From assembly GCF_002854065.1 (NCBI RefSeq), contig NZ_CP024147.1: DNA of 64,000 bases; one strand, written 5' to 3'. The notes below the pieces were generated by a model. The model did not search any database. It was not told where the DNA came from and worked only from the letters and a program-made list of their open reading frames with translations. Origin of the DNA: Escherichia coli (GTDB lineage Bacteria; Pseudomonadota; Gammaproteobacteria; Enterobacterales; Enterobacteriaceae). Positions 26,363-61,402 of this stretch are shown piece by piece; positions within the stretch are counted from its first letter, which is position 1, and each line of letters starts with the position of its first letter. Position numbers and translations under genes: made by a program.

Positions 26363-26365
26363 GGA

Positions 26366-33721: not shown

Positions 33722-33734
33722 TCAGGAGAAAATC

Positions 33735-34031: not shown

Positions 34032-34040
34032 GGAATTTAC

Positions 34041-34205
34041 CATGAGAGGACTTGCATACAATCCCGGAATTCTTCCGGCAGAAATGATTATTCGCCAACG
34101 CGTAAAGCCAATGCCATCGAGAGAGGAATTGCTTAAGAGAAAGAGTTTCGGTTCTGTTAATGACAACAAATATCTGAATGCGATGTGGCTGAGTGGGAAG
34201 AAATG
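34041..34205 (+). CDS. Hypothetical small phage protein
   Basis: 54-aa in-frame segment from ATG 34041 within ORF 33889-34206; start uncertain. Confidence 0.3.
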
Positions 34206-35161: not shown

Positions 35162-35670
35162 GCACTATCACAAGAGAATGGCTGCAGCAGGCTATCAACG
35201 ATTATGAAAGCGTTCGTGATGAGCTTCCTTTCGGGCTTGATGATTACCAGGGGAATATCCTGGCTGCCCTGCGTATCGCACTGGCATCGCTGGAAGCAGA
35301 GCCGGTGGCGTGGAAGGTAACATTCACGCAAATTGACCGTGAATATAACACGTTCACTGGTATGTATTCTGACAAAGCAGAAGTCGAACGGTGGGTGCGG
35401 CTGCATAAAGCATGTAATTTTCGGGCAGATATAACACCGCTTTATACCGCCAAGCCAGTGCCGGTAACTCCGGATGGTTGGATAAGCTGTAGTGAGCGAA
35501 TGCCAGAGGACGGTCAGCACGTAATTATTTTATGTGATGGCGCATTCGTTCTTTATGCGCAATATCGAGACGGAGAGTTTTTCGATATTGTCCGCAATGG
35601 TGATGAATTTTTCGAAACACAGAGTCGCAATGTAACCGACTGGATGCAACTACCAGAACCTCCCCTTTGA
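35158..35670 (+). CDS. DUF551-type phage protein
   Basis: 170-aa ORF; C-terminal region (PDGWISCSERMPEDGQHVIILCDG) resembles DUF551. Confidence 0.5.
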   Translation: MSTITREWLQQAINDYESVRDELPFGLDDYQGNILAALRIALASLEAEPVAWKVTFTQIDREYNTFTGMYSDKAEVERWVRLHKACNFRADITPLYTAKPVPVTPDGWISCSERMPEDGQHVIILCDGAFVLYAQYRDGEFFDIVRNGDEFFETQSRNVTDWMQLPEPPL

Positions 35671-35766
35671 TAGCTAAGCTTATACATATCTTTTACATCA
35701 GCAATCTATTGTTAATCTCCAATCAATGTTACGTTGTCATCTCTCTCATGCTTTGGAGGTAGTGAT

Positions 35767-35958
35767 ATGTCTTGTCCAAAATGCGGTTCTGGAAATATTG
35801 CAAAAGAAAAAACAATGCGTGGATGGTCTGATGATTATGTGTGCTGCGATTGCGGATACAACGACTCTAAAGACGCATTTGGAGAGCGTGGTAAAAACGA
35901 GTTTGTCAAAATTAATAAAGAACGCGAAGGCGGTGATGCTGCCAACTTACTGATTTAG
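35767..35958 (+). pseudogene. Phage zinc-ribbon protein with C-terminus altered by IS1 insertion (native end ...EREGNEKS reconstructed across the IS)
   Basis: CxxC...CxxC motif (MSCPKCGSG...YVCCDCGY); GGAGGT RBS 6 nt upstream of ATG 35767; reading frame runs into the IS1 terminal repeat. Confidence 0.55.
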
Positions 35959-35986
35959 TGTATGATGGTGTTTTTGAGGTGCTCCA

Positions 35987-36262
35987 GTGGCTTCTGTTTC
36001 TATCAGCTGTCCCTCCTGTTCAGCTACTGACGGGGTGGTGCGTAACGGCAAAAGCACTGCCGGACATCAGCGCTATCTCTGCTCTCACTGCCGTAAAACA
36101 TGGCAACTGCAGTTCACTTACACCGCTTCTCAACCCGGTACGCACCAGAAAATCATTGATATGGCCATGAATGGCGTTGGATGCCGGGCAACCGCCCGCA
36201 TTATGGGCGTTGGCCTCAACACGATTTTCCGCCATTTAAAAAACTCAGGCCGCAGTCGGTAA
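35987..36262 (+). CDS. insA: IS1 InsA
   Basis: 91-aa ORF. Confidence 0.9.
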
Positions 36263-36684
36263 CCTCGCGCATACAGCCGGGCAGTGACGTCATCGTCTGC
36301 GCGGAAATGGACGAACAGTGGGGATACGTCGGGGCTAAATCGCGCCAGCGCTGGCTGTTTTACGCGTATGACAGGCTCCGGAAGACGGTTGTTGCGCACG
36401 TATTCGGTGAACGCACTATGGCGACGCTGGGGCGTCTTATGAGCCTGCTGTCACCCTTTGACGTGGTGATATGGATGACGGATGGCTGGCCGCTGTATGA
36501 ATCCCGCCTGAAGGGAAAGCTGCACGTAATCAGCAAGCGATATACGCAGCGAATTGAGCGGCATAACCTGAATCTGAGGCAGCACTTGGCACGGCTGGGA
36601 CGGAAGTCGCTGTCGTTCTCAAAATCGGTGGAGCTGCATGACAAAGTCATCGGGCATTATCTGAACATAAAACACTATCAATAA
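36181..36684 (+). CDS. insB: IS1 transposase InsB
   Basis: 167-aa ORF. Confidence 0.9.
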
Positions 36685-36823
36685 GTTGGAGTCATTACCC
36701 GCGAAGGCAACGAAAAAAGCTAATTTATTTATTCATATATGAAAACAATGTAATAAATATTCGAATTGAAGAATTGAAAGAACACCAAGCCGCCTGATGG
36801 CGGTTTTTTATTGGAGACAAGAA

Positions 36824-37168
36824 ATGTCAGATTTGGCTATGAAGGTTTTGAAATGGCAATCGACTGGCGATGTCGGCATCAGTAGCGCAACTCTTGCCTC
36901 AATCGCATGTGGCCTGAAAAAGAATATCTATGGTCATCACTTCGGCGCTCCCCATGACGCAGCAGACTTTCGGCGATGCGTTGCACTTGTTGAGCAGATT
37001 CCAGAAATCAGAGATTCATTCGACAAGGTTGCAAAGCGCGTTCCGGCATTCAAAGGAATCCTCAACGAATGGGATTCACTCGTTGCTCTGTTGAAGTCTG
37101 AAATGAAGACGTACGGGAACAAAGCACCAGAGACTTACAGAAGAATCAGCGAGCTACGCAAGGACTAA
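36824..37168 (+). CDS. Hypothetical phage protein (moron-like unit bracketed by hairpin/T-run elements)
   Basis: Start at ATG 36824 (MSDLAMKVLKWQ...) with GGAGA RBS; GC hairpin plus T-run at 36789-36809 and a similar element at 37209-37229. Confidence 0.45.
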   Translation: MSDLAMKVLKWQSTGDVGISSATLASIACGLKKNIYGHHFGAPHDAADFRRCVALVEQIPEIRDSFDKVAKRVPAFKGILNEWDSLVALLKSEMKTYGNKAPETYRRISELRKD

Positions 37169-37245
37169 CGCCTCACACTCGATGAGGCCTGTACATATCT
37201 GATAGATCCGCTATATGGCGGTTTATTTTTGCCTGGAGAATTAAG

Positions 37246-37437
37246 ATGACCGATACCAGCCTGATTCCTGAGAAAGAAGTGATGAACAAGCTCGGTGTTT
37301 CATCACGTCAGACAATCTGGAACTATACCAAACGGCACGGATTTCCGAAGCCAGTCAGAACCCACCCCAAATCATACCTTCGTGAAGCTGTTGAAGGGTG
37401 GATTCTTAACGGTGGCGTTAATCAGAAATGCTCCTGA
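37246..37437 (+). CDS. alpA: AlpA-family phage transcriptional regulator / excisionase-like
   Basis: 63-aa ORF with HTH (VSSRQTIWNYTKRHGFPKP), convergent with and adjacent to integrase. Confidence 0.7.
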   Translation: MTDTSLIPEKEVMNKLGVSSRQTIWNYTKRHGFPKPVRTHPKSYLREAVEGWILNGGVNQKCS

Positions 37438-38596
37438 TGTGCCAGAACAATTTATCAGCGTGAAGCTCATACGCTTTGCGCTGAGCCTCTATCCAGTCGT
37501 GTTTATTGTATACGGACATTATCCCGCCAAGTTCATGACCGAGCATTCGCTCAGTAACATGAGGCTCGACATTCATCTCGGACAGACGTGTAACAAGCGT
37601 TCTTCTGAAATCGTGTGTTCGCCAGTAACCTAGATCCATCCCTCCCCTTATTCTATTTACGAATCGGTTGGCTGCAGCGATGCTGATCGGTTTGTTTATG
37701 TCTTCTCCAGGGAAAAGAACATCATTGTACGTTGTCATGGCCTTTTCGAGGAAAGGCTTAATTTGTTCGAAGATTGGACGGCGGATAACATTACCCATCT
37801 TGCTATGCTCTTTCGGTACGGTCCATACGTTTTCCAGCAGGTCAAATTCTGTCTTTTTTGCCAGCCTAAGCTCTGAGAGCCTCGCCCCCCACAGCATAAG
37901 CATCTGATGAAGTAGCTTATTTGACGTAGACGCACGGCTTCTTTCAATAGCAAGCCAAATCTTAGCCAGTTCGTGATACGACAGTACCCGATCCCCTACC
38001 TCAGCGCGGGAGCCGAAGTCCCTTGGTTGGATGCTCATAATTGCGCAACTATCTATCAACTGACGCCGCATGCACCAACTTATTGCTGATCTTAGTTGAC
38101 TTAGCACCTGCCTTGCTCGGCGTGGATTATCTCTTTCTTCTTCGGTAAGCAGGTCAACCCATTGCTTAACCGTGATAGAAGATGCCGGACGATTAGGAAA
38201 GGCGTCATGCATGCGCTTCATAACCGTTGATCGGTAAAGTGCCTGGGTCTTTTCTCTGAGAGTTGTAGAGACGTAGTTGTCGAACCAGTAGTCGAGACAC
38301 TGGGCGACCGTCATGGAGTTCTCCACCTTCTCTTCAAAATAAGTGCGTGGATCCGTTCCTGAGAAATAGAGCTTTCGCAAGTCAGCAGTGATCTGTCTGG
38401 CATCCTTCAAAGACAGGGATGGGTATCGACCAAGCCCAAGTCGATTAGGCTTGCCATGCCAGCGATAGCGGTACTGGAACTGGATGACCCCCTTCGGTGA
38501 AATTCGTACGCTGAGGCCATCGGCATCAGCCACTTCTTGTGGGCCCGAATATGGTTTACCATAAATACTACGCAGTTTTGTGTCGCTTATAGCCAT
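37418..38596 (-). CDS. int: Tyrosine-type phage integrase (P4-type, N-terminal arm-binding domain)
   Basis: 392-aa ORF with integrase catalytic region (HDFRRT...LGH...Y); adjacent to attR. Confidence 0.85.
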   Translation of the reverse strand: MAISDTKLRSIYGKPYSGPQEVADADGLSVRISPKGVIQFQYRYRWHGKPNRLGLGRYPSLSLKDARQITADLRKLYFSGTDPRTYFEEKVENSMTVAQCLDYWFDNYVSTTLREKTQALYRSTVMKRMHDAFPNRPASSITVKQWVDLLTEEERDNPRRARQVLSQLRSAISWCMRRQLIDSCAIMSIQPRDFGSRAEVGDRVLSYHELAKIWLAIERSRASTSNKLLHQMLMLWGARLSELRLAKKTEFDLLENVWTVPKEHSKMGNVIRRPIFEQIKPFLEKAMTTYNDVLFPGEDINKPISIAAANRFVNRIRGGMDLGYWRTHDFRRTLVTRLSEMNVEPHVTERMLGHELGGIMSVYNKHDWIEAQRKAYELHADKLFWHIRSISD

Positions 38597-38605
38597 AAAT
38601 AATAT

Positions 38606-38648
38606 TTGGTACGCTCAGAAATAATGGTTTGGTACACATCTGGTACAC
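38606..38648. repeat. Direct repeats TTTGGTAC(G/A)C x3, putative integrase arm-type sites (attR side)
   Basis: tttggtacgc 38606-38615, tttggtacac 38628-38637, ctggtacac 38640-38648; matching pair on attL side at 23638-23660. Confidence 0.5.
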
Positions 38649-38777
38649 AATATCACATGGACAACAGCGCACAGTAAACAACTATATTTGACGTTCGTAG
38701 ACATACTCAGGTGAAAAAATGGTTGTTTTTCGAGTTATAACAGACAGTTAATTAACTACAGTGGACAATGCTAGACA

Positions 38778-40202
38778 ATGACAGACGCAGATAAACAACC
38801 TACCTTCCTCTTTCACGATTACGAAACCTTTGGCACGCACCCCGCGTTAGATCGCCCTGCACAGTTCGCAGCCATTCGCACCGATAGCGAATTCAATGTC
38901 ATCGGAGAACCCGAAGTCTTTTACTGCAAGCCCGCTGATGACTATTTACCCCAGCCAGGAGCAGTATTAATTACCGGTATTACCCCGCAGGAAGCACGGG
39001 CGAAAGGAGAAAACGAAGCCGCGTTTGCCGCCCGTATTCACTTGCTTTTTACCGTACCGAAGACCTGTATTCTGGGCTACAACAATGTGCGTTTCGACGA
39101 CGAAGTCACACGCAACATTTTTTATCGTAATTTCTACGATCCTTACGCCTGGAGCTGGCAAAACCGCAATTCGCGCTGGGATCTGCTTGACGTGATGCGC
39201 GCCTGCTATGCCCTGCGCCCGGACGGCATCAACTGGCCGGAAAACGACGACGGTCTGCCGAGCTTCCGCCTGGAACATCTCACCAAGGCCAACGGTATTG
39301 AACACAGTAACGCCCATGATGCGATGGCCGACGTTTACGCGACCATCGCCATGGCGAAGCTGGTGAAGGCCCAACAGCCAAAGCTGTTTGATTATCTGTA
39401 TGCCTACCGGGGCAAAAACAAGCTGATGACGCTGATTGACGTCCCGCAGATGAAGCCACTGGTGCATGTCTCGGGAATGTTTGGCGCCTGGCGCGGAAAC
39501 ACCAGCTGGATTGCGCCGCTGGCCTGGCATCCGGATAACCGTAATGCGGTGATCATGGTCGACCTGGCGGGCGACATCGCCCCGCTGCTCGAGCTGGATG
39601 CCGATACGCTGCGCGAGCGCCTGTATACGCCGAAGGCCGAGCTCGGCGACAGTTCGCCGGTGCCGATTAAGCTGGTGCATCTGAATAAGTGCCCGGTGCT
39701 GGCGCAGGCCAATACCCTGCGCCCAGAAGACGCTGACCGTTTAGGCATTAACCGACAGCACTGCCTGGATAACCTGAAACTGCTGCGCGATAACCCGCAG
39801 GTGCGCGAGAAGGTGGTGGCGATTTTTGCTGAAGCCGAGCCGTTTGTCGCATCGGACAACGTCGACGCCCAGCTTTATAACGGTTTCTTTAGCGACGCCG
39901 ACCGCGCGGCGATGAAAATCGTGCTGGAGACCGAGCCGCGCAATCTGCCGGCGCTGGACATTACCTTCGCCGACCCGCGTATTGAGAAGCTGCTGTTTAA
40001 CTTCCGCGCGCGCAACTTCCCCGGCACGCTGGATGAAAACGAGCAACAGCGCTGGCTGGAACACCGTCGGCAGATCTTCACCCCGGAATTTTTACAGGCC
40101 TACGCCCAGCAACTGGAGATGTTGTACGGTCAGTATGAGGGGAATAACGAGAAGCTATCGCTGCTGAAGGCGCTGTATCAGTACGTGCAGGAGATTGTTT
40201 AA
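38778..40202 (+). CDS. sbcB: Exodeoxyribonuclease I, with phage-supplied promoter and first ~11 codons (MTDADKQPTFLF...)
   Basis: 474-aa ORF with DnaQ-like exonuclease N-terminus (FLFHDYETFG); hairpin terminator 40211-40241 downstream. Confidence 0.9.
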   Translation: MTDADKQPTFLFHDYETFGTHPALDRPAQFAAIRTDSEFNVIGEPEVFYCKPADDYLPQPGAVLITGITPQEARAKGENEAAFAARIHLLFTVPKTCILGYNNVRFDDEVTRNIFYRNFYDPYAWSWQNRNSRWDLLDVMRACYALRPDGINWPENDDGLPSFRLEHLTKANGIEHSNAHDAMADVYATIAMAKLVKAQQPKLFDYLYAYRGKNKLMTLIDVPQMKPLVHVSGMFGAWRGNTSWIAPLAWHPDNRNAVIMVDLAGDIAPLLELDADTLRERLYTPKAELGDSSPVPIKLVHLNKCPVLAQANTLRPEDADRLGINRQHCLDNLKLLRDNPQVREKVVAIFAEAEPFVASDNVDAQLYNGFFSDADRAAMKIVLETEPRNLPALDITFADPRIEKLLFNFRARNFPGTLDENEQQRWLEHRRQIFTPEFLQAYAQQLEMLYGQYEGNNEKLSLLKALYQYVQEIV

Positions 40203-40255
40203 TTCAACGCAGCGACGCCGGAAAATCTTCCCGGCGTCGCTTGATGCCTGGGGCA

Positions 40256-40480
40256 TTATTTCTGTACGGTGATGGTCCACGCCGCATCGCCAGACTGCTG
40301 ATAGTCCGTGACCGTAAAGCCCTCTTCCGCCGCCCACTGCGGGATGGCTTCCGTCGCCTGAGTACAGTCGAACTCAATCACCAGCTGGTCGCCGCTGGCC
40401 AGTTCCGCCATCGCCGCCTTCGCTTCAATTAACGGGAACGGGCAAACCTGCGTGACTACGTCCAGTTTCTTCACAACCAT
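40256..40480 (-). CDS. yeeD: TusA-like sulfurtransferase
   Basis: 74-aa ORF with CPxP motif (VCPFPLIEAK). Confidence 0.85.
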   Translation of the reverse strand: MVVKKLDVVTQVCPFPLIEAKAAMAELASGDQLVIEFDCTQATEAIPQWAAEEGFTVTDYQQSGDAAWTITVQK

Positions 40481-40525
40481 TTTTTCTACTCCTTAAGCCG
40501 TTGCGGTTTTCAGTTTTGCTTTCCG

Positions 40526-41494
40526 CTACGGGCGAACATACAACATCCACGACGCGCACCACACGCCGAGAATCATAAATACCAGGCCAATCCAGCCCTG
40601 CCAGGTCATCATCGCCGTCATCACCAAACCGTTGCCGATCGAGCAGCCGCCGGCAATGCTGGCACCGAAGCCCATCAGTACGCCGCCACCCGCGCTACGC
40701 AGCGTGGTGCTGGCATCGGCAGCGCGGACGCGGAATTCACGGCTGGCTTTCGCGGCAATAAACGAACCGATAAAGATTCCCAGCACCAGGAAGACGCCCC
40801 AGTTGAGGTACTTGCTGTCACCCCCCACCAGGAACTGCAGGATATTGGCGGTCGGCGAGGTAATGCCAAGGCCAAACATACGTCCGGTGGCCTCACTCAG
40901 CGGCCAGGCCAGCAGGGCGATAAGGCCAATCAGCACGGCGGTCACAAACGGATGCCAACGCTTTTCAAACAGCAGATGCGCCAGGCCAGTGCGGCGCGGC
41001 GGCAGAGAAGCTACTTTGAGCTTTGGTTTGCTCAGCTCTTTGCGAACAAACCACAGGGTCACCGCCACCAGCAGAACGATAAGTGGCCAGACGGAGATAT
41101 TCAGGGTTTCGGCAATGCCGTTGTGAGTGGTCGTGTGTTGACCGAGGAATTTGTTAAGCCCAGCCGCGTGCGGTGAACGCATGATCGCGCTCATCACCAT
41201 ATAGGTGACCAGTGCAATCCAGCTGCCAATCAGCCCTTCCCCGGCACGATACCAGGTGCCGGTGGCGCAGCCTCCCGCATAAACGATACCGATACCAAAA
41301 ACAAATCCACCCACCACGGTGCCAAGCCACGGGAACGCGCCTGCATCGTACTGCACCAGGCCAAGCTGGATCAGGGCGAACACGCCGATACTCTGGATAC
41401 AGATAGCAATCAACAGTGCGTAAAACATGCGGTTATTTTTGGTGATATACATATCGCGAAAGCCACCCGTCAGGCAGAAACGACCGCGCTGCAT
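40526..41494 (-). pseudogene. yeeE: YeeE/YedE-family transporter, 5' end severed by IS1 (first ~14 codons lie beyond the IS at ~42283-42330)
   Basis: 322-aa membrane ORF abutting the IS1 end; minus-strand sequence after the IS encodes MIISGMICGAL..., completing the native N-terminus across the 9-bp duplication. Confidence 0.75.
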
Positions 41495-41560
41495 AACGAA
41501 TCCCAGGTGATGCTGCCAACTTACTGATTTAGTGTATGATGGTGTTTTTGAGGTGCTCCA

Positions 41561-41836
41561 GTGGCTTCTGTTTCTATCAGCTGTCCCTCCTGTTCAGCTA
41601 CTGACGGGGTGGTGCGTAACGGCAAAAGCACCGCCGGACATCAGCGCTATCTCTGCTCTCACTGCCGTAAAACATGGCAACTGCAGTTCACTTACACCGC
41701 TTCTCAACCCGGTACGCACCAGAAAATCATTGATATGGCCATGAATGGCGTTGGATGCCGGGCAACTGCCCGCATTATGGGCGTTGGCCTCAACACGATT
41801 TTACGTCACTTAAAAAACTCAGGCCGCAGTCGGTAA
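41561..41836 (+). CDS. insA: IS1 InsA
   Basis: 91-aa ORF. Confidence 0.9.
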
Positions 41837-42258
41837 CCTCGCGCATACAGCCGGGCAGTGACGTCATCGTCTGCGCGGAAATGGACGAACAGTGGGGCTA
41901 TGTCGGGGCTAAATCGCGCCAGCGCTGGCTGTTTTACGCGTATGACAGTCTCCGGAAGACGGTTGTTGCGCACGTATTCGGTGAACGCACTATGGCGACG
42001 CTGGGGCGTCTTATGAGCCTGCTGTCACCCTTTGACGTGGTGATATGGATGACGGATGGCTGGCCGCTGTATGAATCCCGCCTGAAGGGAAAGCTGCACG
42101 TAATCAGCAAGCGATATACGCAGCGAATTGAGCGGCATAACCTGAATCTGAGGCAGCACCTGGCACGGCTGGGACGGAAGTCGCTGTCGTTCTCAAAATC
42201 GGTGGAGCTGCATGACAAAGTCATCGGGCATTATCTGAACATAAAACACTATCAATAA
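41755..42258 (+). CDS. insB: IS1 transposase InsB
   Basis: 167-aa ORF (FTSLKK variant). Confidence 0.9.
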
Positions 42259-42460
42259 GTTGGAGTCATTACCCGAATCCCAGTAAAGCCCCGCAAATCA
42301 TGCCACTTATTATCATGTGCAACATAAGAATCAATTAACTCAATATTATCAGTCTTAAAATTATTCCTGACCCCGCCGGACGGCTCCAATAACCAAAAGC
42401 TCTATATTATTCCCGACGGTTATTAATATTGATTTTTTAATCACCCCACAAACTTAAGAC

Positions 42461-42490
42461 AAAAAAAACCGGAGGCCCAGACCTCCGGTT
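42461..42490 (-). terminator. Terminator downstream of plaP
   Basis: Hairpin ccggaggcccagacctccgg with A-run on plus strand (T-run on minus). Confidence 0.6.
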
Positions 42491-42515
42491 TTGCAACCAT
42501 CGTTTTTAAATTCAG

Positions 42516-43874
42516 TTATGCAACATCTTCGTACTGCGGAACCGGGTTGCGGAAGCTTTTGGTCACACAGGCCAGGTAGATCAGACCGATACCGGCCCAG
42601 ATCAGGCCCAGAACCATAGAGCTCTCTTCCAGGTTCACCCACAGTGCGCCAACGGTCAGCGCGCCGCAGATTGGCAGGAACAGGTACTGGAAGTGATCTT
42701 TCAGCGTCTTATTACGCTTCTCACGGATCCAGAACTGAGAGATAACGGACAGGTTCACGAAGGTGAACGCCACCAGCGCACCGAAGTTAATCAGCGCCGT
42801 TGCCATCACCAGGTCGAAGTTAATCGCCAGCAGCGCAATCGCGCCAACCAGGATGATGTTCATCGCCGGGGTGCGCCAGGTTGGATGCACGTAGCCGAAG
42901 AAGCTTTTCGGGAACACGCCATCACGGCCCATCACGTACATCAGACGCGCCACACCCGCATGCGCCGCCATACCGGAAGCCAGCACGGTAATGGTGGAGA
43001 AGATCAGCGCGCCAACCTGGAAGGCTTTACCCGCCACGTACAGCATGATTTCAGGCTGTGAGGCGTCCGGATCTTTGAAGCGAGAGATATCCGGGAAGTA
43101 GAGCTGCAGGAAATAGGTGGAGAAGATAAAGATCAGGCCACCAATCAGCGCCGTCAGGAAGATAGCACGCGGAATCACACGCTCAGCGTCTTTGGTTTCT
43201 TCAGACAGGTTGCTGATACCGTCAAAACCGGTAAAGGAGAAGCACAGAATCGTGGCCCCGGTAATCATAGGGATCACGTGCGCATCACCCGACCAGAACG
43301 GACGGTTGCTTGCCAGCGTACCGGCACCTTCGCCGTGCGCCACGCCATAAATCACCATACCTAGGATCACGGCAATCAGTACCACCTGGAACACCACGAT
43401 CACGGTGTTAAAGTTGGCGACAGATTTGATGCTGCGCAGGTTAAAGGCGGTCATAAAGGCAACCAGTGCAATCACGAATACCCATGACGGTATCGACGGC
43501 ACCAGCGCTTCGAAATAGATTTTTGCCAGCAGAATGTTGATCATCGGCGCGAACAGATAATCGAGCAGCGAAGACCAACCCACCATAAAGCCAACGGTCG
43601 GGCTGATGGATTTCTGGGCATAAGTGTAGGCAGAGCCCGCCGAAGGATAACGGCGCACCAGCTTACCGTAGCTCAGCGCGGTGAACAGAATTGCCACCAG
43701 AGCGAAGGCATAAGCTGTTGGCACGTGACCATCGGTCATGCCAGATACGATACCGAACGTATCAAACAGCGTCATCGGCTGCATATAGGCCAGGCCCATC
43801 ATAACAACCGGAATAAGCGTAAGCGTTTTACGTAATTCCACGCGAGAGGTGTTTGGAGTAACGTTATGCGACAC
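42516..43874 (-). CDS. plaP: Amino acid/polyamine permease (putrescine importer PlaP)
   Basis: 452-aa 12-TM APC-family ORF; synteny. Confidence 0.85.
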
Positions 43875-44221
43875 GGTCAGTCTCCATTACGGCGATGGCC
43901 GGCGCAAAATTGAAAAATTGCCCCATTTTTTTTCTGTTTCCTCAGCGACAACGACTGTCGTTTTTTAAGTAAGTATCTATCCGGTACGAAGCCCGGCCTC
44001 TTTAATTTGATGGTTGTTTTGATGTAAAAAAAATAACCGACGCGGCAAGCACGTCGGTTAATCTCAATTTTTTACATTCGACATATTTTGCCCCAAACGG
44101 TAGCAAAAAGACAAGCCGCTGAGAGCATAATCAGCACGCCTTCTCGTCTAAACGACTGATAATTCAGCAACTCCCGAATCATAAATCTCATCAATAGCAC
44201 TATTTGCTAAAACAGCGGCGA

Positions 44222-45043
44222 TTATTCCATCGGCATACGTAACGGGTCAGGATACTGATACTCAAAGCCGAGCTCGCGGCAAATGAGATTACCGTCGATG
44301 ATTTTGCCTTTTCCATTACCGCTGTCGCTAAAGCTCGGAACCGCTAACCCCAGCTCACGCGCCATTTGCGGATAGAAAATACCGCGAGCGGGATGCAACG
44401 GCGCACAAATGTTATAAATGTGTCCACCCTTCGGCGCCTGTAATAAAAGCGTAATAGCAGAGACAACATCTTCCAGATGGACGAGATTCACGCCGTGCTG
44501 ACCATCCGGCGCGGATTTACCTGCGAAGAAACGTCCCGGATGCCGATCCGGCCCCACCAGCCCCGCCAGACGCAGAATATCCACCGACGTCCCCGGCAAT
44601 TGATGAAGCCAGTCTTCCAGCTCTTTTAATACTCTGCCGCTAGCGGTAACCGGTTCACGCGGCGTGCTCTCTTTTACCAGCCCTTCTTCTTTACCGTAGA
44701 CCGAAGTGGAGCTGGTAAAGATAATGCGCGGAATCTGGTACGCCAGCGCGGTGTCCACAATCTCCTGCACCGCCTGATGATAGAAATCTTCGCCCGGACC
44801 GCTGCGGCGCGCGGGGAGCGTAATGACCAGCGCGTCAACATTCATTAAAGCATCAAGGTCATCAGCCTCACAGACCAGCTGCGGATCGAGCCGCAACGGA
44901 TAGCTATCAATCCCGCACATCCGTGCGGCTTCCACGCCATCCTCTGTCGTTTTACTGCCCGTTACCTGCCAGCCGCGCGCCATCAACGACAGCGCCAGCG
45001 GCATACCCAGCCACCCTAAACCGACAATTGCCACCTTCTTCAT
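44222..45043 (-). CDS. yeeZ: NAD-dependent epimerase/dehydratase family protein
   Basis: Start at internal ATG (MKKVAIVGLGWLG Rossmann motif) with AGGAGA RBS; 274 aa. Confidence 0.8.
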   Translation of the reverse strand: MKKVAIVGLGWLGMPLALSLMARGWQVTGSKTTEDGVEAARMCGIDSYPLRLDPQLVCEADDLDALMNVDALVITLPARRSGPGEDFYHQAVQEIVDTALAYQIPRIIFTSSTSVYGKEEGLVKESTPREPVTASGRVLKELEDWLHQLPGTSVDILRLAGLVGPDRHPGRFFAGKSAPDGQHGVNLVHLEDVVSAITLLLQAPKGGHIYNICAPLHPARGIFYPQMARELGLAVPSFSDSGNGKGKIIDGNLICRELGFEYQYPDPLRMPME

Positions 45044-45149
45044 TGCGCTATCTCCTGGTTCATCCTGCACTCCTCTCATAAGGCTACGCCACAGCGAGAA
45101 AACTGACAATTTATAGTGGTAACATGAATTGATTTAATGAATGAAAAAA

Positions 45150-45190
45150 GCGCTTGCGCTCAACGACAAAAGTGGTTTAGGTTAAAAGAC
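45150..45190 (+). promoter_or_regulatory. his operon promoter region (approximate)
   Basis: Location upstream of hisL; TAGGTTAAAAG -10-like element as remembered for the enterobacterial his promoter. Confidence 0.4.
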
Positions 45191-45221
45191 ATCAAGTGAA
45201 TAGTCATTCAACGAGAAATTT

Positions 45222-45272
45222 ATGAGCCGCGTTCAATTTAAACACCACCATCATCACCATCATCCTGACTAG
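45222..45272 (+). CDS. hisL: his operon leader peptide (7 consecutive His codons)
   Basis: atg agc cgc gtt caa ttt aaa cac cac cat cat cac cat cat cct gac tag = [16 protein letters not shown]. Confidence 0.95.
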
Positions 45273-45369
45273 TCTTTCAGGCGATGTGTGCTGGGAGACA
45301 TTCAGATCTTCCAGTGGTGCATGAACGCAAGAGAGCCCCCGGAAGATCATCTTCCGGGGGCTTTTTTTT
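45273..45369 (+). promoter_or_regulatory. his attenuator with terminator hairpin 45335-45369
   Basis: Perfect 13-bp stem gcccccggaagat/atcttccgggggc followed by T8, between hisL and hisG. Confidence 0.9.
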
Positions 45370-45403
45370 GAACCAAATTCAGCAGGGTAATGAGGAATAC
45401 AGA

Positions 45404-46303
45404 ATGTTAGATAACAGCCGTTTACGCATAGCTATTCAGAAATCAGGCCGCCTGAGCGATGATTCACGCGAATTACTGGCCCGTTGTGGTATCAAAATCA
45501 ATCTCCACACCCAGCGCCTGATCGCGATGGCGGAGAACATGCCGATCGATATCCTGCGCGTTCGCGATGACGATATTCCGGGGTTGATTATGGATGGCGT
45601 GGTCGATCTCGGCATTATCGGTGAAAACGTTCTGGAAGAAGAGCTGCTGAGCCGCCGCGCGCAAGGCGAAGACCCGCGCTACTTTACCCTGCGTCGTCTG
45701 GACTTCGGCGGCTGCCGTCTGTCGCTGGCGACCCCGGCGGATGAAGCCTGGAACGGCCCGGCTGCGCTCGACGGCAAACGTATTGCCACCTCTTACCCAC
45801 ACCTGCTCAAACGTTATCTCGACCAGAAAGGCATCAGCTTTAAATCCTGCCTGCTGAACGGCTCTGTTGAAGTGGCCCCGCGTGCCGGTCTGGCCGACGC
45901 CATCTGCGACCTGGTATCAACCGGCGCGACGCTGGAAGCCAACGGCCTGCGTGAAGTAGAAGTGATGTTCCGCTCTAAAGCCTGCCTGATTCAACGCGAC
46001 GGCGAGATGAGCGACACCAAGCAGCAGTTGATTGACCGTCTGTTAACCCGTATTCAGGGCGTGATTCAGGCGCGCGAATCGAAATACATCATGATGCACG
46101 CGCCAACCGAACGCCTGGAAGAAGTGATTGCCCTGCTGCCGGGTGCCGAGCGCCCAACCATTCTGCCGCTGGCGGGCGACCAGCAGCGCGTGGCGATGCA
46201 CATGGTCAGCAGCGAAACCCTGTTCTGGGAAACCATGGAAAAACTGAAGTCCCTGGGTGCCAGCTCGATTCTGGTACTGCCGATTGAGAAGATGATGGAG
46301 TAA
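45404..46303 (+). CDS. hisG: ATP phosphoribosyltransferase
   Basis: Start at ATG 45404 ([17 protein letters not shown]...), 299 aa. Confidence 0.9.
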
Positions 46304-46308
46304 GCGCC

Positions 46309-51813
<5,505 letters not shown>

Positions 51814-51820
<7 letters not shown>

Positions 51821-52413
51821 CTGAACAACTGGACTGGCAAAAAACCGACGGACTGATGCCCGCCATTATCCAACACGCGGTATCCGGTGAAGTGCTGATG
51901 CTGGGCTATATGAACGAGGAAGCGCTGGCCAAAACGCAGGAAACGGGCAAAGTGACCTTTTTCTCGCGCACCAAACAGCGCCTGTGGACCAAGGGTGAAA
52001 CCTCCGGCCACTTCCTCAATGTGGTAAGCATCGCGCCCGACTGCGACAATGACACTCTGCTGGTGCTGGTTAACCCGATTGGCCCGACCTGCCATAAAGG
52101 CACCTCAAGCTGCTTCGGCGACACCAGCCACCAGTGGCTGTTCCTGTATCAGCTTGAGCAGCTGCTGGCCGAGCGTAAAAACGCTGACCCGGCAAGTTCA
52201 TACACCGCTAAGCTGTACGCCAGCGGCACCAAGCGTATCGCGCAGAAAGTGGGTGAAGAAGGCGTGGAAACCGCGCTGGCCGCCACGGTGCACGATAAGT
52301 TTGAGCTGAAGAATGAGGCGTCGGATTTGATGTATCACCTGCTGGTGCTATTGCAGGATCAGGAGCTGGATTTGACGGCGGTGATTGAGAATTTGCGGGA
52401 ACGGCATAAGTAA
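51814..52413 (+). CDS. hisI: Bifunctional phosphoribosyl-AMP cyclohydrolase / phosphoribosyl-ATP pyrophosphatase
   Basis: 199-aa ORF; last gene of his operon. Confidence 0.9.
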
Positions 52414-52423
52414 CGGATAAATT

Positions 52424-52452
52424 TGAGCCCGGCGATAACACCGGGCTTTATT
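52424..52452. terminator. Bidirectional terminator between hisI and ugd
   Basis: Hairpin gcccggcgataacaccgggc flanked by T/A runs. Confidence 0.6.
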
Positions 52453-52469
52453 ATTGCTGCACGAACCTG

Positions 52470-53636
52470 TCAATCATTACCAAACAGATCGCGGGTATAC
52501 ACCTTCTCTTTCACATCAGCCAATTCTTCCGCCATTCGGTTAGAAATGATGACATCCGCTTCTTGCTTAAATGCATCCAAATCGCGTACAACGCGGGAAT
52601 TAAAGAATTCATCTTCTTTCATCGCAGGTTCATACACAATCACTGGAATGCCTTTCGCTTTGATTCGTATCATAATCCCTTGAATCGAAGATGCGCGGAA
52701 ATTGTCGGATCCTGACTTCATGACGAGGCGATATACCCCAACCACTTTCGGCTTGCGGGCCAGGATGGAATCGGCAATAAAATCCTTGCGGGTACGGTTA
52801 GCGTCAACAATCGCACCGACGATGTTATTTGGCACAGACGCATAATTTGCCAGCAGTTGTTTAGTATCTTTCGGGAGGCAATATCCACCATAACCAAAAG
52901 ATGGATTGTTATAGTGATTACCGATGCGCGGGTCCAGGCACACGCCTTCAATAATCTGGCGGGAGTTCAGGCCCAGGCTTTCCGCATAGCTATCCAGCTC
53001 GTTGAAATAAGCCACGCGCATCGCGAGGTAGGTGTTCGCGAATAGCTTGATAGCTTCGGCTTCGGTCGAGTCGGTGAACAGCGTCGGGATATCCTTCTTC
53101 ACTGCCCCTTCCTGCAGCAGCGCGGCAAAACGCTCGGCACGCTCAGAACGTTCGCCGATAACGATACGCGACGGATGCAGGTTGTCGTACAGCGCACGGC
53201 CTTCGCGCAGGAATTCCGGCGAGAAGAAAATATTGTCGATACCCAGTTTTTCTTTAATCGAATTGGTAAAGCCTACCGGAATGGTAGATTTGATAACCAT
53301 CACCGCGTTGGGGTTGATTTCAACGACGTCACGGATAACAGACTCAACGCTGGACGTATTGAAATAGTTCGTTTTGGGGTCGTAATCGGTCGGAGTGGCG
53401 ATGATCACATAGTCTGCATCGCGATAAGCATCGCGCTTATCAGTGGTCGCACGGAAATTCAGCGGTTTGGTCGCCAGATACTCTTCGATCTCTTTGTCGA
53501 CGATCGGCGACTGTTTCTGATTCAGCATGTCGACCTTGGCCTGAACGATATCCAGGGCCACCACTTCGTGGTGCTGGGCGATCAGAATGCCGTTCGACAG
53601 GCCGACGTAACCTGTTCCTGAAATAGTTATCTTCAT
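52470..53636 (-). CDS. ugd: UDP-glucose 6-dehydrogenase
   Basis: 388-aa ORF ([16 protein letters not shown]...GGYCLPKD catalytic Cys motif). Confidence 0.9.
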
Positions 53637-53784
53637 TCGCTCTGTAACTTCTTCCGGTTAAACATTTGAGGGTGAATGCATCACCACCGTGGGACCCAAC
53701 GTTGTCGGATCGGCTTGCCGCCAGTATATCGCGAATTACCGCGTCGCCGCCTATCAGACCTGACTGAATGCTGTTTTCAGACAA

Positions 53785-53815
53785 TAAAAAAGCCCGGAGA
53801 TGCGCTCCGGGCCTG
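53785..53815 (-). terminator. Terminator downstream of gnd
   Basis: Hairpin gcccggagatgcgctccgggc with A-run on plus strand. Confidence 0.6.
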
Positions 53816-53839
53816 GCTTTACGGATGAACTAATTCAGA

Positions 53840-55246
53840 TTAATCCAGCCATTCGGTGTGGAACACACCTTCTTTATCAGTGCGTTTATAGGTATGCGCG
53901 CCGAAGTAGTCACGCTGAGCCTGAATCAGGTTCGCCGGCAGTACCGCAGCGCGGTAGCTATCGTAGTACGCCACTGCTGCAGAGAAGGTCGGTACCGGAA
54001 TACCGTTCTGCACAGCATAGGCCACCACGTCACGCAGCGCCTGCTGGTATTCATCAGCGATATTTTTGAAGTACGGTGCCAGCAGCAGGTTGGCGATACT
54101 CGCGTTTTCAGCGTAGGCGTCGGTGATTTTCTGCAGGAACTGTGCACGAATGATGCAGCCCGCGCGGAAGATCTTCGCGATTTCGCCGTAGTTCAGATCC
54201 CAGTTGTACTCGTCAGACGCGGCACGCAGCTGAGAGAAGCCCTGCGCGTAGGAGACGATTTTACCCAGGTACAGTGCGCGACGCACTTTCTCAACGAACT
54301 CTGCTTTATCGCCAGCCAGTTTAGCCTGCGGGCCAGTCAGCACTTTAGATGCCGCCACGCGCTGGTCTTTCAGGGAGGAGATGTAGCGCGCGAAAACAGA
54401 TTCAGTGATCAGCGACAGCGGTTCGCCCAGGTCCAGAGAGCTCTGGCTAGTCCATTTACCGGTGCCTTTGTTCGCCGCTTCGTCGAGGATCACATCAACC
54501 AGGTATTTACCGTCTTCATCTTTTTTGGTGAAGATGTCTTTGGTGATGTCGATCAGGTAGCTGCTCAGCTCGCCTTCATTCCACTCGGTGAAGGTGGTTG
54601 CCAGCTCTTCGTTAGACAGGTTCAGGCCGCCTTTCAGCAGAGAATAGGCTTCAGCAATCAGCTGCATGTCGCCGTATTCGATACCGTTGTGGACCATTTT
54701 CACGTAATGACCCGCACCGTCAGCACCGATGTAGGTTACGCAAGGCTCGCCGTCTTCAGCTACAGCAGCAATCTTGGTCAGGATAGGCGCAACCAACTCA
54801 TACGCTTCTTTCTGGCCGCCAGGCATGATAGATGGGCCCTTCAGCGCGCCCTCTTCGCCGCCGGATACGCCGGTACCGATGAAGTTAAAGCCTTCAGCAG
54901 ACAGCTCACGGTTACGACGAATGGTATCCTGGAAGAAGGTGTTACCACCATCAATGATGATGTCACCTTTATCAAGGTAAGGTTTCAGGGAATCGATGGC
55001 AGCATCGGTGCCCGCGCCTGCTTTCACCATTAACAGGATACGACGTGGGGTCTCAAGAGACTCGACGAACTCCTTGACCGTGTAGTGAGGAACCAGCTTT
55101 TTGCCTGGATTCTCAGCGACAACTTCTTCGGTTTTTTCACGGGAGCGGTTGAAGATAGAGACGGTATAACCACGGCTTTCGATGTTGAGCGCCAGGTTGC
55201 GCCCCATCACAGCCATACCGACTACGCCGATTTGTTGCTTAGACAT
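53840..55246 (-). CDS. gnd: 6-phosphogluconate dehydrogenase (decarboxylating)
   Basis: 468-aa ORF ([21 protein letters not shown]...). Confidence 0.95.
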
Positions 55247-55417
55247 TACATACTCCTGTCAGGTAGTATCTGTCTATGAACAGACAGAATTTAAGAAATT
55301 ATATATTAGGAGAACGACAAGTTGTATAAAGAAATAGATGTTTGAGTGAAATTAATAACTGTCATAAGTAACTAAAAAAACGCATAGCGACAAGCTCAGA
55401 TAAGTTGTTGCTCAATA

Positions 55418-56563
55418 TTAGAGCACTTCTTGCATTGTGAGTTTATTATAGATTTGAACGGTTTTTCGTATGACAACGGTAGATGAATACTTTTCCTCTA
55501 CTCGCTTTCTGGCATTCTGCCCCATCTTAGTGCGCTCAAGAGGATCGCTAATAAGGATACCAAGCTTCTGAGAAAATAGGTTCACATTTCCTTTAGGCAC
55601 AAGGAAACCGTTATAACCGTCAAGTATTAAACTCCCACAACCACCAGTGTCAAAACTTATAACAGGACGACCGATTGCACCGGCTTCTAAAAGAATTCGA
55701 GGAATACCTTCAGAGTAAACAGATGGCAAAGCGACTATATCCACACTTTCAATTAATTCCTTGATATCGCTACGCTTGCCCAGCCAAATGATATCACCGG
55801 AGTTATGCCACTCTTCTATCTGAGTTATACTTATAGCGTCGCGATCATTGTCAACAAGAATGCCCGCAACTAATATCTCAAATTCGATGCCTTGTAATTT
55901 TAAAATTCTACTAGCATCAATTAACGTGCGTAGCCCTTTACTCCAAAGCATGCGACTTGCAAAAAAAACTTTAACCTTGGTATTATTAGGTGGTGTACTA
56001 TAACAAAAATAGTCTATATTAATACCTGCGCCATCAATAACTTCAGTTTTATTTTTTGGAATATCTAATAGTTCAATTATTTTTTGCTGATCTTTTTTAT
56101 GTTCAAAGAGGATACAACAATCAATATTTAAGAAAAATCTTCTATACATATTAGCAATTAAGAACTTAACCATTTGGTAAATGACCTTATTGCTTTCAAA
56201 AACTCTACCTAACCCAACAAAACTATAGACCATTTTTTTGTTTCGGATTCTGGCCCATAAACAACTAATCACACCAGGTTTAATCGTGACGCTATGCACA
56301 ATATCAGGATTAATTTTATTCAATGTTCTAAATGAGCGAGTTATATCGCAAAAGAAAACAACAGGATTGATATTTTGCTCTTTTATTTTACTATCAATAC
56401 ACTTAAATCCTAAACTAGTAAAGCGATCCAGAATAGACTTGTCAGAATAATTCGCAAAAATATAGACATCATATCCTGCTTCCAGAACTGATAAGGCACG
56501 ATCTAACCAATGTAATTCGAAATACCAAGCGGAGTTCACAAAATAACATATCTTTATTTTCAT
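55418..56563 (-). CDS. Glycosyltransferase family 1 (GT4-type), O-antigen cluster
   Basis: 381-aa ORF with C-terminal GT1 motif (...EGIPRILLEAGAIGRPVISFDTGG...); AT-rich. Confidence 0.7.
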   Translation of the reverse strand: MKIKICYFVNSAWYFELHWLDRALSVLEAGYDVYIFANYSDKSILDRFTSLGFKCIDSKIKEQNINPVVFFCDITRSFRTLNKINPDIVHSVTIKPGVISCLWARIRNKKMVYSFVGLGRVFESNKVIYQMVKFLIANMYRRFFLNIDCCILFEHKKDQQKIIELLDIPKNKTEVIDGAGINIDYFCYSTPPNNTKVKVFFASRMLWSKGLRTLIDASRILKLQGIEFEILVAGILVDNDRDAISITQIEEWHNSGDIIWLGKRSDIKELIESVDIVALPSVYSEGIPRILLEAGAIGRPVISFDTGGCGSLILDGYNGFLVPKGNVNLFSQKLGILISDPLERTKMGQNARKRVEEKYSSTVVIRKTVQIYNKLTMQEVL

Positions 56564-56718
56564 ATTTAAAACTCACATCTCCTTCCTTAAGCTATTATCC
56601 TGTTAAAATTTAAAACCTCAGCACGTCATCTTATACTTCGAAGAAAATATCAGTTTTAAATAAAGCAAAACAAATCATCCCTGATTTGTTTGTGAATCAA
56701 AATAAAGACTATTACAAA

Positions 56719-58878
56719 TCACCAACACACAAGCATGTATTCATACACCAGATCACGCTCAGGCTGGAGGTGAACAAACTTGAATTGATAACCCATATTG
56801 AGATTTTCAACAAATTTCTTACATTCAAAAATTTGCTCTGGCTGCAACCACAAGTGATAAACAGAAATCAGCAACACGGGCTTGTGTTTTTTGATTGTCT
56901 CGATTGCACCATTAAGGGCATTAATCTCATAGCCTTCAATATCGAATTTAATCAAACCAACACGATCTTCAAACGTCAGACTATCAATAGTGACCGATTG
57001 AACTTTAATGTCAGACTGCTCGTCTTCAACAACACATGAGCCTACTCCATCATCCCCAACTTTCATCATCGAAAGTTCGCCAGATACATTGCTGACAGCA
57101 ACATTTAAGGGTTTAATAGTATCATTTAAATATTGATGATTACGCTCAAGATTCCGAACCATACAGTTATAATTATCAGCTACAGGTTCTAAGGCAAGTA
57201 CTTCTTTAAATCCAAAGCTAGCGAACATGATAGCTGTATCACCAACCCAAGCCCCACAATCTATAGCAACAGAGCCTTTGAATTCTTCAGTGAATCGGCC
57301 TGGAAGATACTTCAAGCCAGCTTTGAAATAGTTGGTTGCTAGAGTAACCGGTAATTCAGATAGATCAAGATGCTGAATTAATTCTTTTTCGTGACGTAAG
57401 ATTGAATCAATATTTGACAATATAACTCTATCTTCATCCGTAAATAATGTTAAAGATAAAGGTAATTCCAACTCAATGCCTTGATGTTCAAAGTATGGCA
57501 GTAATTCATAAAAACCAAATAATTTCCTCTCATTTTGAAGGCTAAATTCATCAAGGCCGCGTTTGAATTCTTCACGTAGTTTAGAGATCCGAGAGGAATT
57601 TACCTTCATGTAATAATAAAACTGGTTAGTAGGCGCTACTTTTATTAGTACAGAACCATTTTTATTCTGTCCTGAAATGACATCGACTTTATCAGTAAGT
57701 TCTTTCGACATCTTCAAAAATGAAGAATCTAACTCCTCCCGAAAATGTTTGGAAAGTAAAGATGAGGAGGAATCCATTTTTGATGAAACAGCATTAATAA
57801 TTGGTTCAATTATTAATTTGTTAGTAATAAAACGTAGTTTGGAAACGACTTTCTTTTTAATCCTGTTTCTTGTCTGAACTGTTTTTATAATCCTGTTACT
57901 CATCAACTCATTATAAATTGGAAGAACATGATTATAATAATAGTCATTTGTATCGGAGGAAAATGAAACATTAGAAGTTACTGGCTGGAAACCTTCTTCT
58001 TTAGCCTGTTCAAAAACAGCAATAGCAGCTTCCTGATATGACTTCAATCCATCGCCTCTCAAACGAGAAGAATGGAAAACTAAATCAAAAAGATGGTGAA
58101 AATAAAAATGATTCAGGTATTTTTGAAACGTTCCAACACTAAGAAGGTGTTTTTTTATAATATCATAATTATTAAAAGATATTAATGCCTTGTCAGCACT
58201 AGCACTGGATGAGCCCACGTTCATGACCCTGTAGTTATAAACAGGCACATTCAAAAGAGTTATCTTTTCTACAGAGGCATAGGTGATGAATTTAAAGGGC
58301 ATATCCTGATATGAAGCCCCAGGACTTTCATAGAAGCGAATATGATTTTCTTCAAGAAAATCTCTTCTATACAAGCCAGTCCAGATTGATGATTCAAGCA
58401 AGAAAAGCTCAACTGAATTTTCTGGTACAATTTCTGCCAAGTTATCATTATCAAATGTACATAAATGCGCAAGGGACTGAGTATTGATTACAACTTCATT
58501 ACTTATTCTATTGAAACTTGCTTTAATGACCGGATTCGGGATTTTATTATAAGCGTCTATTAGACGCTCAAACATATCAAGCTGAACCCAATCGTCTGTT
58601 TCGATGATAGAAATAAAATCGCCGCTTGCAACATCTAGCCCAGAGTTGATTGCAGCTCCGTAACCTGCGTTTTTTTTATGGATAGCAATAATTCTTGTAT
58701 CGCTCGAAGCGTATCGATCAATAATCTGAGGGCAAGCATCAGGGCTACCGTCATTGACTATTATTATTTCCAGATTCTTATATGTTTGAGACAGAACACT
58801 GTCGAGACATTGCTCTAAATAAACTTCGCCGCCGTATACAGGTAAAATAACGGAAATTTTAAAGATATCATCACCCAT
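56719..58878 (-). CDS. Fused glycosyltransferase family 2 (N-terminal) - FkbM-family methyltransferase (C-terminal)
   Basis: 719-aa ORF; N-terminus ISVILPVYGGEVYLEQCLDSVLSQTY...IVNDGS...DDW (GT2); C-terminus AIDCGAWVGDTAIMFA...FDIEGYEINAL (FkbM-type SAM methyltransferase). Confidence 0.65.
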   Translation of the reverse strand: MGDDIFKISVILPVYGGEVYLEQCLDSVLSQTYKNLEIIIVNDGSPDACPQIIDRYASSDTRIIAIHKKNAGYGAAINSGLDVASGDFISIIETDDWVQLDMFERLIDAYNKIPNPVIKASFNRISNEVVINTQSLAHLCTFDNDNLAEIVPENSVELFLLESSIWTGLYRRDFLEENHIRFYESPGASYQDMPFKFITYASVEKITLLNVPVYNYRVMNVGSSSASADKALISFNNYDIIKKHLLSVGTFQKYLNHFYFHHLFDLVFHSSRLRGDGLKSYQEAAIAVFEQAKEEGFQPVTSNVSFSSDTNDYYYNHVLPIYNELMSNRIIKTVQTRNRIKKKVVSKLRFITNKLIIEPIINAVSSKMDSSSSLLSKHFREELDSSFLKMSKELTDKVDVISGQNKNGSVLIKVAPTNQFYYYMKVNSSRISKLREEFKRGLDEFSLQNERKLFGFYELLPYFEHQGIELELPLSLTLFTDEDRVILSNIDSILRHEKELIQHLDLSELPVTLATNYFKAGLKYLPGRFTEEFKGSVAIDCGAWVGDTAIMFASFGFKEVLALEPVADNYNCMVRNLERNHQYLNDTIKPLNVAVSNVSGELSMMKVGDDGVGSCVVEDEQSDIKVQSVTIDSLTFEDRVGLIKFDIEGYEINALNGAIETIKKHKPVLLISVYHLWLQPEQIFECKKFVENLNMGYQFKFVHLQPERDLVYEYMLVCW

Positions 58879-61400: not shown

Positions 61401-61402
61401 AA

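Follow-up and report, generated by a model that had tools for sequence, protein, structure and literature searches.

Replacement of about 67 kb of an Escherichia coli chromosome, from sbcB through his, gnd and the O52 O-antigen cluster to mdtA, by DNA of probable Kluyvera origin

Introduction

Why does an Escherichia coli chromosome change its base composition in the middle of sbcB, the exonuclease I gene, and keep the changed composition through the his operon as far as gnd, where a strongly AT-rich O-antigen cluster takes over? The question is raised by a stretch of 64,000 nucleotides (nt) from E. coli contig NZ_CP024147.1 (assembly GCF_002854065.1), referred to here as the window, which covers part of the his-gnd-rfb recombination hotspot. 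A first-pass annotation, made from the sequence alone, had described a guanine-plus-cytosine (GC)-rich block from mid-sbcB to gnd, full of long antisense open reading frames (ORFs), and proposed that it may be an imported allele segment with a junction inside sbcB. Here we report that a stretch of ~67 kb of E. coli DNA, of which the window contains the left part, has very probably been replaced by the orthologous piece of a Kluyvera chromosome.

Results

Parentage changes abruptly inside sbcB

Left of the block, the window carries recipient-type E. coli core DNA. The segment with tmaR, yeeA, sbmC and dacD (19717–23583) was 98.6% identical to K-12, and dacD alone was 99.3% identical to K-12 and 76.6–76.8% to Kluyvera. 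By contrast with the ~99% of dacD and the 5' part of sbcB, identity of the block (39161–55300) to K-12 was 73–87%. It amounted to 74–77% for the sbcB 3' part, tsuB and tsuA (77.8% over sbcB-tsuA), 82.7–87.3% for plaP, 72.7–73.1% for yeeZ, 81.8% for the his operon overall (79.6–85.8% for individual his genes), 72.7–75.3% for ugd, and about 86% for gnd (85.9–86.1%). Uniform identity to Escherichia references, the pattern on which the first-pass annotation would have abandoned its proposal, was thus not observed. Among 5,426 complete E. coli genomes, almost all were ~86% identical to the window over his-gnd and only 4 reached at least 99%, the closest being CUWW06 (NZ_CP182139.1), with 99.98% over 42274–64000 (21.7 kb shared).

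The proposed junction inside sbcB (38778–40202, + strand) was confirmed and could be narrowed to a short interval. Identity of the gene to K-12 was 96–100% until about 39150 and 60–83% thereafter; mismatches numbered 3 in 38811–39160 and 250 over the 1,052 bp that follow. When the window and K-12 were aligned together with Kluyvera sp. CRP, all informative sites in 38811–39137 that matched either parent were K-12-type; the last K-12-type site was 39137 and the first Kluyvera-type site 39161. The 5' part (38811–39137) was 99.1% identical to K-12 and 76% to Kluyvera, and the sequence from 39161 was 97% Kluyvera-type versus 77% K-12-type. The crossover falls inside the intervening 23 bp (39138–39160), over which K-12, the window and Kluyvera sp. 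CRP do not differ. The maximum chi-squared value for the gene was 255.1, a value reached in none of 10,000 permutations (highest permuted value, 24.1). At the protein level, residues ~12–120 of SbcB were 98.2% identical to K-12 and 89.0% to Kluyvera, and residues ~129–474 were 85.6% identical to K-12 and 99.4% to Kluyvera. The chimeric gene is intact, encoding 474 amino acids with no internal stop, and the same switch was present in 12 of the 12 E. coli carriers examined.

The donor sequence is of Kluyvera type

A scan of 100,044 species-representative genomes from GTDB with HisC returned, among the matches listed, a single near relative, Kluyvera genomosp. 1, with 98% amino acid identity and an identical gene order; at the nucleotide level this genome was 84–92% identical to the window (about 87%). 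Other genera, including Klebsiella, Raoultella, Citrobacter, Enterobacter, Pseudocitrobacter and Pluralibacter, gave 81–84% over the block among the matches listed. The donor group itself was found later by exact-protein look-ups of HisF and YeeZ, which led to loci 98.4–98.9% identical to the window over plaP-his and carrying different O loci. They include two complete genomes of 5.0–5.2 Mb, those of Kluyvera sp. CRP (CP082841.1; red-panda faeces, 54.8% GC) and K. ascorbata Colony288 (CP078559.1). Gene by gene, the window was 95.2–100% identical to the Kluyvera genomes.

In these genomes the region lies in what appears to be its native setting. Left of sbcB are dacD (76% identical to E. coli), yeeA, tmaR and cobUST, sbmC being absent, and the DacD, YeeA and LysR proteins of the donor-type genomes cluster with Kluyvera species alone. 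This native context is shared by Kluyvera sp. CRP, K. ascorbata Colony288, assembly GCA_025979265.1 (L107/L117) and contig L133. Sequence comparison thus places the probable donor in the genus Kluyvera, within the ascorbata/georgiana/genomosp. 3 group. As to the imported allele that the first-pass annotation envisaged, an origin in another E. coli does not hold, since alleles 95–100% identical to Kluyvera in every gene point to a different genus.

The replaced block keeps the Kluyvera gene order

The window matched K-12 gene for gene from sbcB to mdtA (right part read in CUWW06), at 67–86% identity and with no net insertion. Differences in gene content from K-12 were limited to those that Kluyvera also shows: yeeY, yoeB-yefM and wzzB are missing from the block, and likewise from Kluyvera. 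The Kluyvera-derived segment opens with the sbcB 3' part, tsuB and tsuA (39161–41505); the sbcB 3' part was 97.0–97.6% identical to Kluyvera, tsuB (40256–40480, − strand) 98.7–100%, and tsuA (40493 onward, − strand) 95.2–96.6%. It continues with plaP, a yeeZ-like gene, hisL and the his leader (42274–45403), in the order found in the Kluyvera loci; plaP (42516–43874, − strand) was 99.3–99.4% identical to Kluyvera, and the yeeZ-like short-chain dehydrogenase/reductase gene (44222–45043, − strand) 98.4–98.9%. Each gene of the operon hisGDCBHAFI (45404–52413, + strand) was 97.3–99.4% identical to genomes of the K. ascorbata group. Next come ugd (52470–53636, − strand) and gnd (53840–55246, − strand), 98.5% and 98.3% identical, respectively, to Kluyvera L107. 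No wzzB intervenes between hisI and ugd, and Kluyvera L107 shows the same wzz-less order.

The 5' end of tsuA is interrupted by an insertion sequence (IS), an IS1 copy at 41506–42273, whose ends and target duplication were read from the sequence: the 9-bp repeat CGAATCCCA flanks it at 41497–41505 and 42274–42282. The element is a later, strain-specific insertion, missing from CUWW06 and from strain 100416; inactivation of this thiosulfate transporter gene (tsuA/yeeE) is therefore probably confined to the window strain.

Base composition and antisense ORFs follow the donor

GC content in 1-kb windows rose from 0.477 at 38–39 kb to 0.578 at 39–40 kb, peaked at 0.636 at 47–48 kb, stayed within 0.51–0.64 up to 55 kb, and was 0.32–0.42 beyond. 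The pooled value for 39161–55300 was 0.557, compared with 0.508 for the orthologous K-12 stretch and 0.558–0.566 for Kluyvera; the E. coli core at 19.7–23.6 kb had 0.476, and 55301–64000 had 0.369. The GC-rich block and the AT-richness of the O-antigen genes after 55300 were both borne out, though GC is modest (0.51–0.52) in the subregion at 42–46 kb, and the block as a whole departs from the species norm as given by K-12. Pooled GC at third codon positions (GC3) from plaP through gnd was 0.678 versus 0.583 in K-12, with values of 0.66–0.77 for the his operon genes.

Both antisense ORFs named in the first-pass annotation were found, at 48548–49639 (− strand, 363 amino acids) and 53858–55033 (+ strand, 391 amino acids). 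The longest stop-free antisense stretch exceeded that of K-12 in 11 of 14 genes, for example 350 versus 145 codons in hisB and 257 versus 120 in sbcB; the antisense ORF of gnd is mostly a property of the gene itself, with 353 codons in K-12 as well. The higher GC content of the donor (54.8% genome-wide, GC3 ~0.68) accounts for both the raised GC and the stop-poor antisense frames. The accompanying statement that upstream housekeeping genes show no such ORFs stood for those genes and does not extend to prophage baseplate DNA at 26–31 kb, a separate GC-rich block with antisense ORFs of its own.

The O52 cluster belongs to the same import

The AT-rich sequence at 55418–64000 (− strand, GC 0.369) is the distal part of an O-antigen cluster that extends beyond the window. 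Within the window it comprises three glycosyltransferase genes (one fused to a methyltransferase domain), gmhB, hddC, gmhA, hddA and dmhA; wzm and wzt, read in CUWW06, are positioned just past the window end. RefSeq annotation of the CUWW06 cluster lists heptose-pathway genes, an FkbM methyltransferase, and wzm and wzt of the 'O52 family'. At 99.98% identity to CUWW06, the window cluster can be assigned, by sequence, to E. coli O52. It appears to be the gene cluster of Feng et al. (2004) as summarised in PMC7685785, where O52 is described as a D-Fucf/6-deoxy-D-manno-heptose disaccharide unit with wzm/wzt and a terminating methyltransferase.

An O52-type cluster was also present in the Kluyvera assembly GCA_025979265.1 (L107/L117), whose left context is entirely that of Kluyvera and which is labelled K. 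ascorbata by accession series. It was 98.3–99.4% identical to window 55418–61993, where the L107 locus ends. The AT-rich O52 cluster thus appears to be part of the same Kluyvera import, and the compositional step at 55300 pre-existed in the donor. The first-pass annotation had closed the block at gnd, at 55300; that end has to be given up, the O52 cluster also being Kluyvera-like and the block continuing in CUWW06 to mdtA. A recombination boundary at 55300 was rejected, because both sides are Kluyvera-like at equal identity.

In the searchable literature we found no text linking O52 or this region to Kluyvera, and no paper naming Kluyvera, E. coli and O52 jointly. In the passages of the review that deal with O52 (PMC7685785), the locus is placed at galF-gnd as an E. 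coli cluster, with no mention there of foreign flanks or of Kluyvera.

The right crossover lies in mdtA

The right end was read from CUWW06, in which the block passes the position of the window end by about 40–42 kb. The K-12-divergent stretch continues there through the O52 cluster, galF, the whole wca cluster, yegH, asmA, dcd, udk, a dgcE pseudogene, alkA and yegD. Kluyvera DNA for comparison at this junction was drawn from protein-cluster members. Kluyvera sp. CRP was 98.75% identical to CUWW06 over 22 kb (wca-alkA), and the WcaJ, Wzc, WcaM and AlkA proteins of CUWW06 cluster with Kluyvera proteins; an exact look-up of its Dcd protein returned E. coli contexts only. Informative sites in mdtA were Kluyvera-type through CUWW06 position 2,967,476 and K-12-type from 2,967,482, which places the crossover within 5 bp. 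The final 1 kb before it was 99–100% identical to Kluyvera contig L133, and the right flank (the mdtA 3' part and mdtBC) was 98–100% identical to K-12. The crossover is ~690 bp into the gene, and the annotation gives an intact MdtA of 417 amino acids. With the left crossover of CUWW06 at 2,900,252–2,900,274, the import has a length of ~67.2 kb. In Kluyvera, yegD is followed directly by mdtA, which explains why yegI-yegL are missing from the import.

Two genes in this part are damaged. Within the import, dgcE (CUWW06 2,961,944–2,964,073) is a fragmented pseudogene, its Kluyvera copy being intact with 779 amino acids; just outside, mdtD (CUWW06 2,974,241–2,975,656) has an internal stop. Both defects may reflect decay following transfer. 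About 8 kb past the right junction, a patch of ~0.9 kb in baeS (CUWW06 2,975,494–2,976,396) is 86–89% identical to K-12. It was considered as an additional Kluyvera import and rejected, its informative sites being a mixture of K-12-type, Kluyvera-type and third states.

Carriers are near-clonal and the donor loci diverse

Divergence among the Kluyvera loci, and between them and the window, is 1–2%, and several O loci are represented among them. The E. coli carriers are 99.8–99.98% identical to the window across the import; among the 12 carriers are NCTC and metagenome assemblies as well as complete genomes from Thailand, Gambia and China. This contrast between diverse Kluyvera loci and near-identical E. 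coli carriers sharing one crossover indicates, at the sequence level, that transfer ran from Kluyvera to E. coli in a single event followed by clonal spread.

Exact-protein searches gave 245 contigs for the O52 Wzt, 542 for the YegD of the block and 654 for its AlkA. The right part of the import thus seems to be commoner in E. coli than the O52 cluster, and the higher AlkA and YegD counts fit later replacement of the O locus within the lineage.

Strain SY3626 (NZ_CP059283.1) shares the sbcB crossover and is Kluyvera-type from there to about window position 45.27 kb (hisL). Beyond hisL it has an Enterobacter-type his operon (94.4% identical to that of E. asburiae L028) and an O locus between hisI and gnd; farther right, the Dcd protein of the block reappears as an exact match in the same gene context. 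The strain is a layered intergeneric mosaic.

A neighbouring prophage is a later arrival

A decayed prophage, lambdoid with a Mu-like tail, occupies 23584–38810 at the sbcB 5' end, outside the import. Its integrase gene (37418–38596, − strand) lies 180 bp upstream of sbcB and is also found in several carriers. The baseplate genes at 26–31 kb, with a GC content of 0.55–0.59, are those noted above for their antisense ORFs. In CUWW06 the prophage, annotated with phage tail, baseplate and integrase genes, is ~38 kb long and intact. Three further IS1 copies (8635–9402, 31520–32288 and 35927–36700) and one IS5 (18518–19719) were found in the window, two of the four inside the prophage, which suggests that most of the prophage was deleted through IS1. 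The first 33 bp of sbcB (38778–38810) differ from K-12; they are derived from the attachment (att) site and were rewritten by prophage insertion. In two carriers, L089 and L091, the prophage is missing and sbcB is K-12-type from its very first base, with the crossover at the same place; in SY3626 another prophage occupies this site. The prophage varies among carriers and was inserted after the import, which it did not deliver; a mediating role was rejected because carriers without it share the junction.

Discussion

The observations taken together, namely recipient flanks on both sides, a collinear swap, abrupt switches inside genes, and a donor with native context, make it highly probable that a ~67-kb stretch of E. 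coli was replaced by an orthologous piece of a Kluyvera chromosome. The replacement took the form of a double homologous crossover, at codon ~121–128 of sbcB and in mdtA, both of them conserved genes that are left as in-frame chimeras. Between the crossovers, Kluyvera gene order is found throughout, including tsuBA, plaP, yeeZ, his, ugd, gnd and the O52 cluster. RecA-dependent recombination at ~20% divergence was probably aided by relaxed mismatch repair. Conjugation or a large-capacity generalised transducing phage may have delivered the DNA, since 67 kb exceeds the capacity of a lambda or P22 head. Our suggestions on mismatch repair and delivery draw on the established barriers to recombination among enterobacteria. 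Selection for the new O antigen may then have fixed the replacement. Loss of wzzB would have been tolerated, since O52 uses the ABC-transporter route together with a terminal methyltransferase (PMC7685785). Both mobile elements near the junction, the prophage and the IS1, would have arrived afterwards.

Some points weigh against this reading. No sampled Kluyvera genome is identical to the import; the best reach ~98.7–98.9% overall, and tsuA just 95–97%, so the true donor strain or subspecies is unsampled. The scan of GTDB representatives gave, among the matches listed, Kluyvera genomosp. 1 only, at ~87% nucleotide identity. About 42 kb of the block, the right junction included, fall beyond the window and are known from CUWW06, a strain other than that of the window. 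The route of delivery and the role of mismatch repair are points that we infer.

Other explanations fit less well. Had there been no transfer, the block would be a divergent ancestral E. coli allele in a natively GC-rich, polymorphic region. K-12 his and gnd are indeed somewhat GC-rich (hisD, 0.58), and the gnd antisense ORF exists in K-12 as well, but identity to K-12 is 99% before and about 77% after a step of 24 bp in one gene, the 14–27% divergence from K-12 is greater than the divergence to E. albertii, and the block is 97–99% identical to Kluyvera chromosomes that bear Kluyvera flanks, which leaves this explanation scarcely credible. Import from a different genus of enterobacteria (Klebsiella, Citrobacter or Enterobacter, for instance) has published precedent at this very locus in the Klebsiella-to-E. 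coli transfers of O8/O9 and group 1 capsules, and plaP and hisG are marginally nearer to Pseudocitrobacter than to Kluyvera genomosp. 1. We nevertheless consider it very improbable: the K. ascorbata group matches at 95–100% per gene versus the 81–84% of non-Kluyvera representatives among the matches listed, and the O locus lies at galF-gnd here and at gnd-hisI in Klebsiella.

Shared sequence by itself gives no direction, and nothing specific speaks for a transfer from E. coli to Kluyvera. More than 5,400 E. coli genomes have the E. coli version (~80% identical), the Kluyvera region is continuous with a Kluyvera-type dacD and sbcB 5' part and shows 1–2% diversity with several O loci, the E. coli carriers are near-clonal across the block, and its GC content fits Kluyvera; a reverse transfer can hardly be entertained. 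That an integrase gene lies so close to sbcB in several carriers as well as in the window might suggest a mobile island, a prophage or an integrative and conjugative element, inserted site-specifically at this point. Yet the foreign DNA swaps orthologues one for one and adds none, both of its ends are crossovers in homologous genes, and ~330 bp of E. coli-type sbcB separate the integrase from the junction, which L089 and L091 share without any prophage, the prophage being variable among carriers. No island bounded by an integrase and att sites was recognised, the integrase lying outside the block; no systematic repeat search was made at the block ends. We judge such an insertion very unlikely. 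Nothing supports an artefact of assembly or contamination, in which a chimeric contig would combine E. coli with Kluyvera DNA, and it can be dismissed, the identical junction being present in at least 12 independent assemblies.

Replacement by Kluyvera DNA, as the preferred reading, provides a natural example of homologous recombination across ~20% divergence that swapped more than 50 chromosomal genes together, among them the his operon of an essential pathway, gnd, the O antigen and the entire colanic-acid cluster, and it gives the O52 antigen a concrete Kluyvera origin. Typing based on gnd or his, and schemes resembling multilocus sequence typing, will misplace carrier strains. The system lends itself to testing how far the mismatch-repair barrier extends, how chimeric SbcB and MdtA function, and how foreign core genes co-adapt. 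A further proposal, which we put forward tentatively and consider rather unlikely as a whole, is that O52 arose in one ~67-kb Kluyvera overwrite whose leftover Kluyvera-type flanks then served as a landing pad, lowering the homology barrier for further non-Escherichia polysaccharide loci; SY3626 would be a possible example.

Events of this type are well known at the hotspot, and the present one extends the existing picture without overturning it: intergeneric replacement at his-gnd-rfb is already established, and the present case adds one with a Kluyvera donor and closely mapped crossovers. A statistical survey of capsule and O loci across Enterobacteriales by Holt et al. (ISME J 2020; PMC7305143) attributed 218 between-genera cases of cps/O locus sharing to recent exchange; it works by locus type and does not resolve single events, flanks or crossovers. 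According to the account given in PMC5429811 of Nelson & Selander (1994), gnd and adjacent DNA have moved between enteric genera. The replacement described here resembles that transfer in that a foreign housekeeping allele would have hitch-hiked with a change of O antigen by homologous recombination, and differs from the transfer as recounted there in spanning ~67 kb and more than 50 genes, with the his operon and the colanic-acid cluster, in having crossovers placed within 23 bp and 5 bp, and in its probable Kluyvera donor. Further parallels are the Klebsiella-derived E. coli O8/O9/O9a clusters (PMC7685785) and the group 1 capsule loci of the yegH-hisI interval (PMC6128206). With O8/O9, the present case shares a his-linked polysaccharide region from another genus and an O antigen of the ABC-transporter type for which wzz is unneeded. 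It does not have the features of a Klebsiella-type replacement, since ugd abuts hisI, the O locus lies beyond gnd, and CUWW06 has a colanic-acid cluster; identity of the block to representatives of Klebsiella and Raoultella is ~82%. The O8/O9 and group 1 cases have their O locus in the gnd-hisI interval and a group 1 capsule locus (wzi-wza-wzb-wzc) instead of colanic acid, often with IS elements on either side. Here, by contrast, the E. coli layout is retained, galF-O locus-gnd together with a colanic-acid cluster; the donor appears to be Kluyvera, and the import simply ends in homologous crossovers within sbcB and mdtA.

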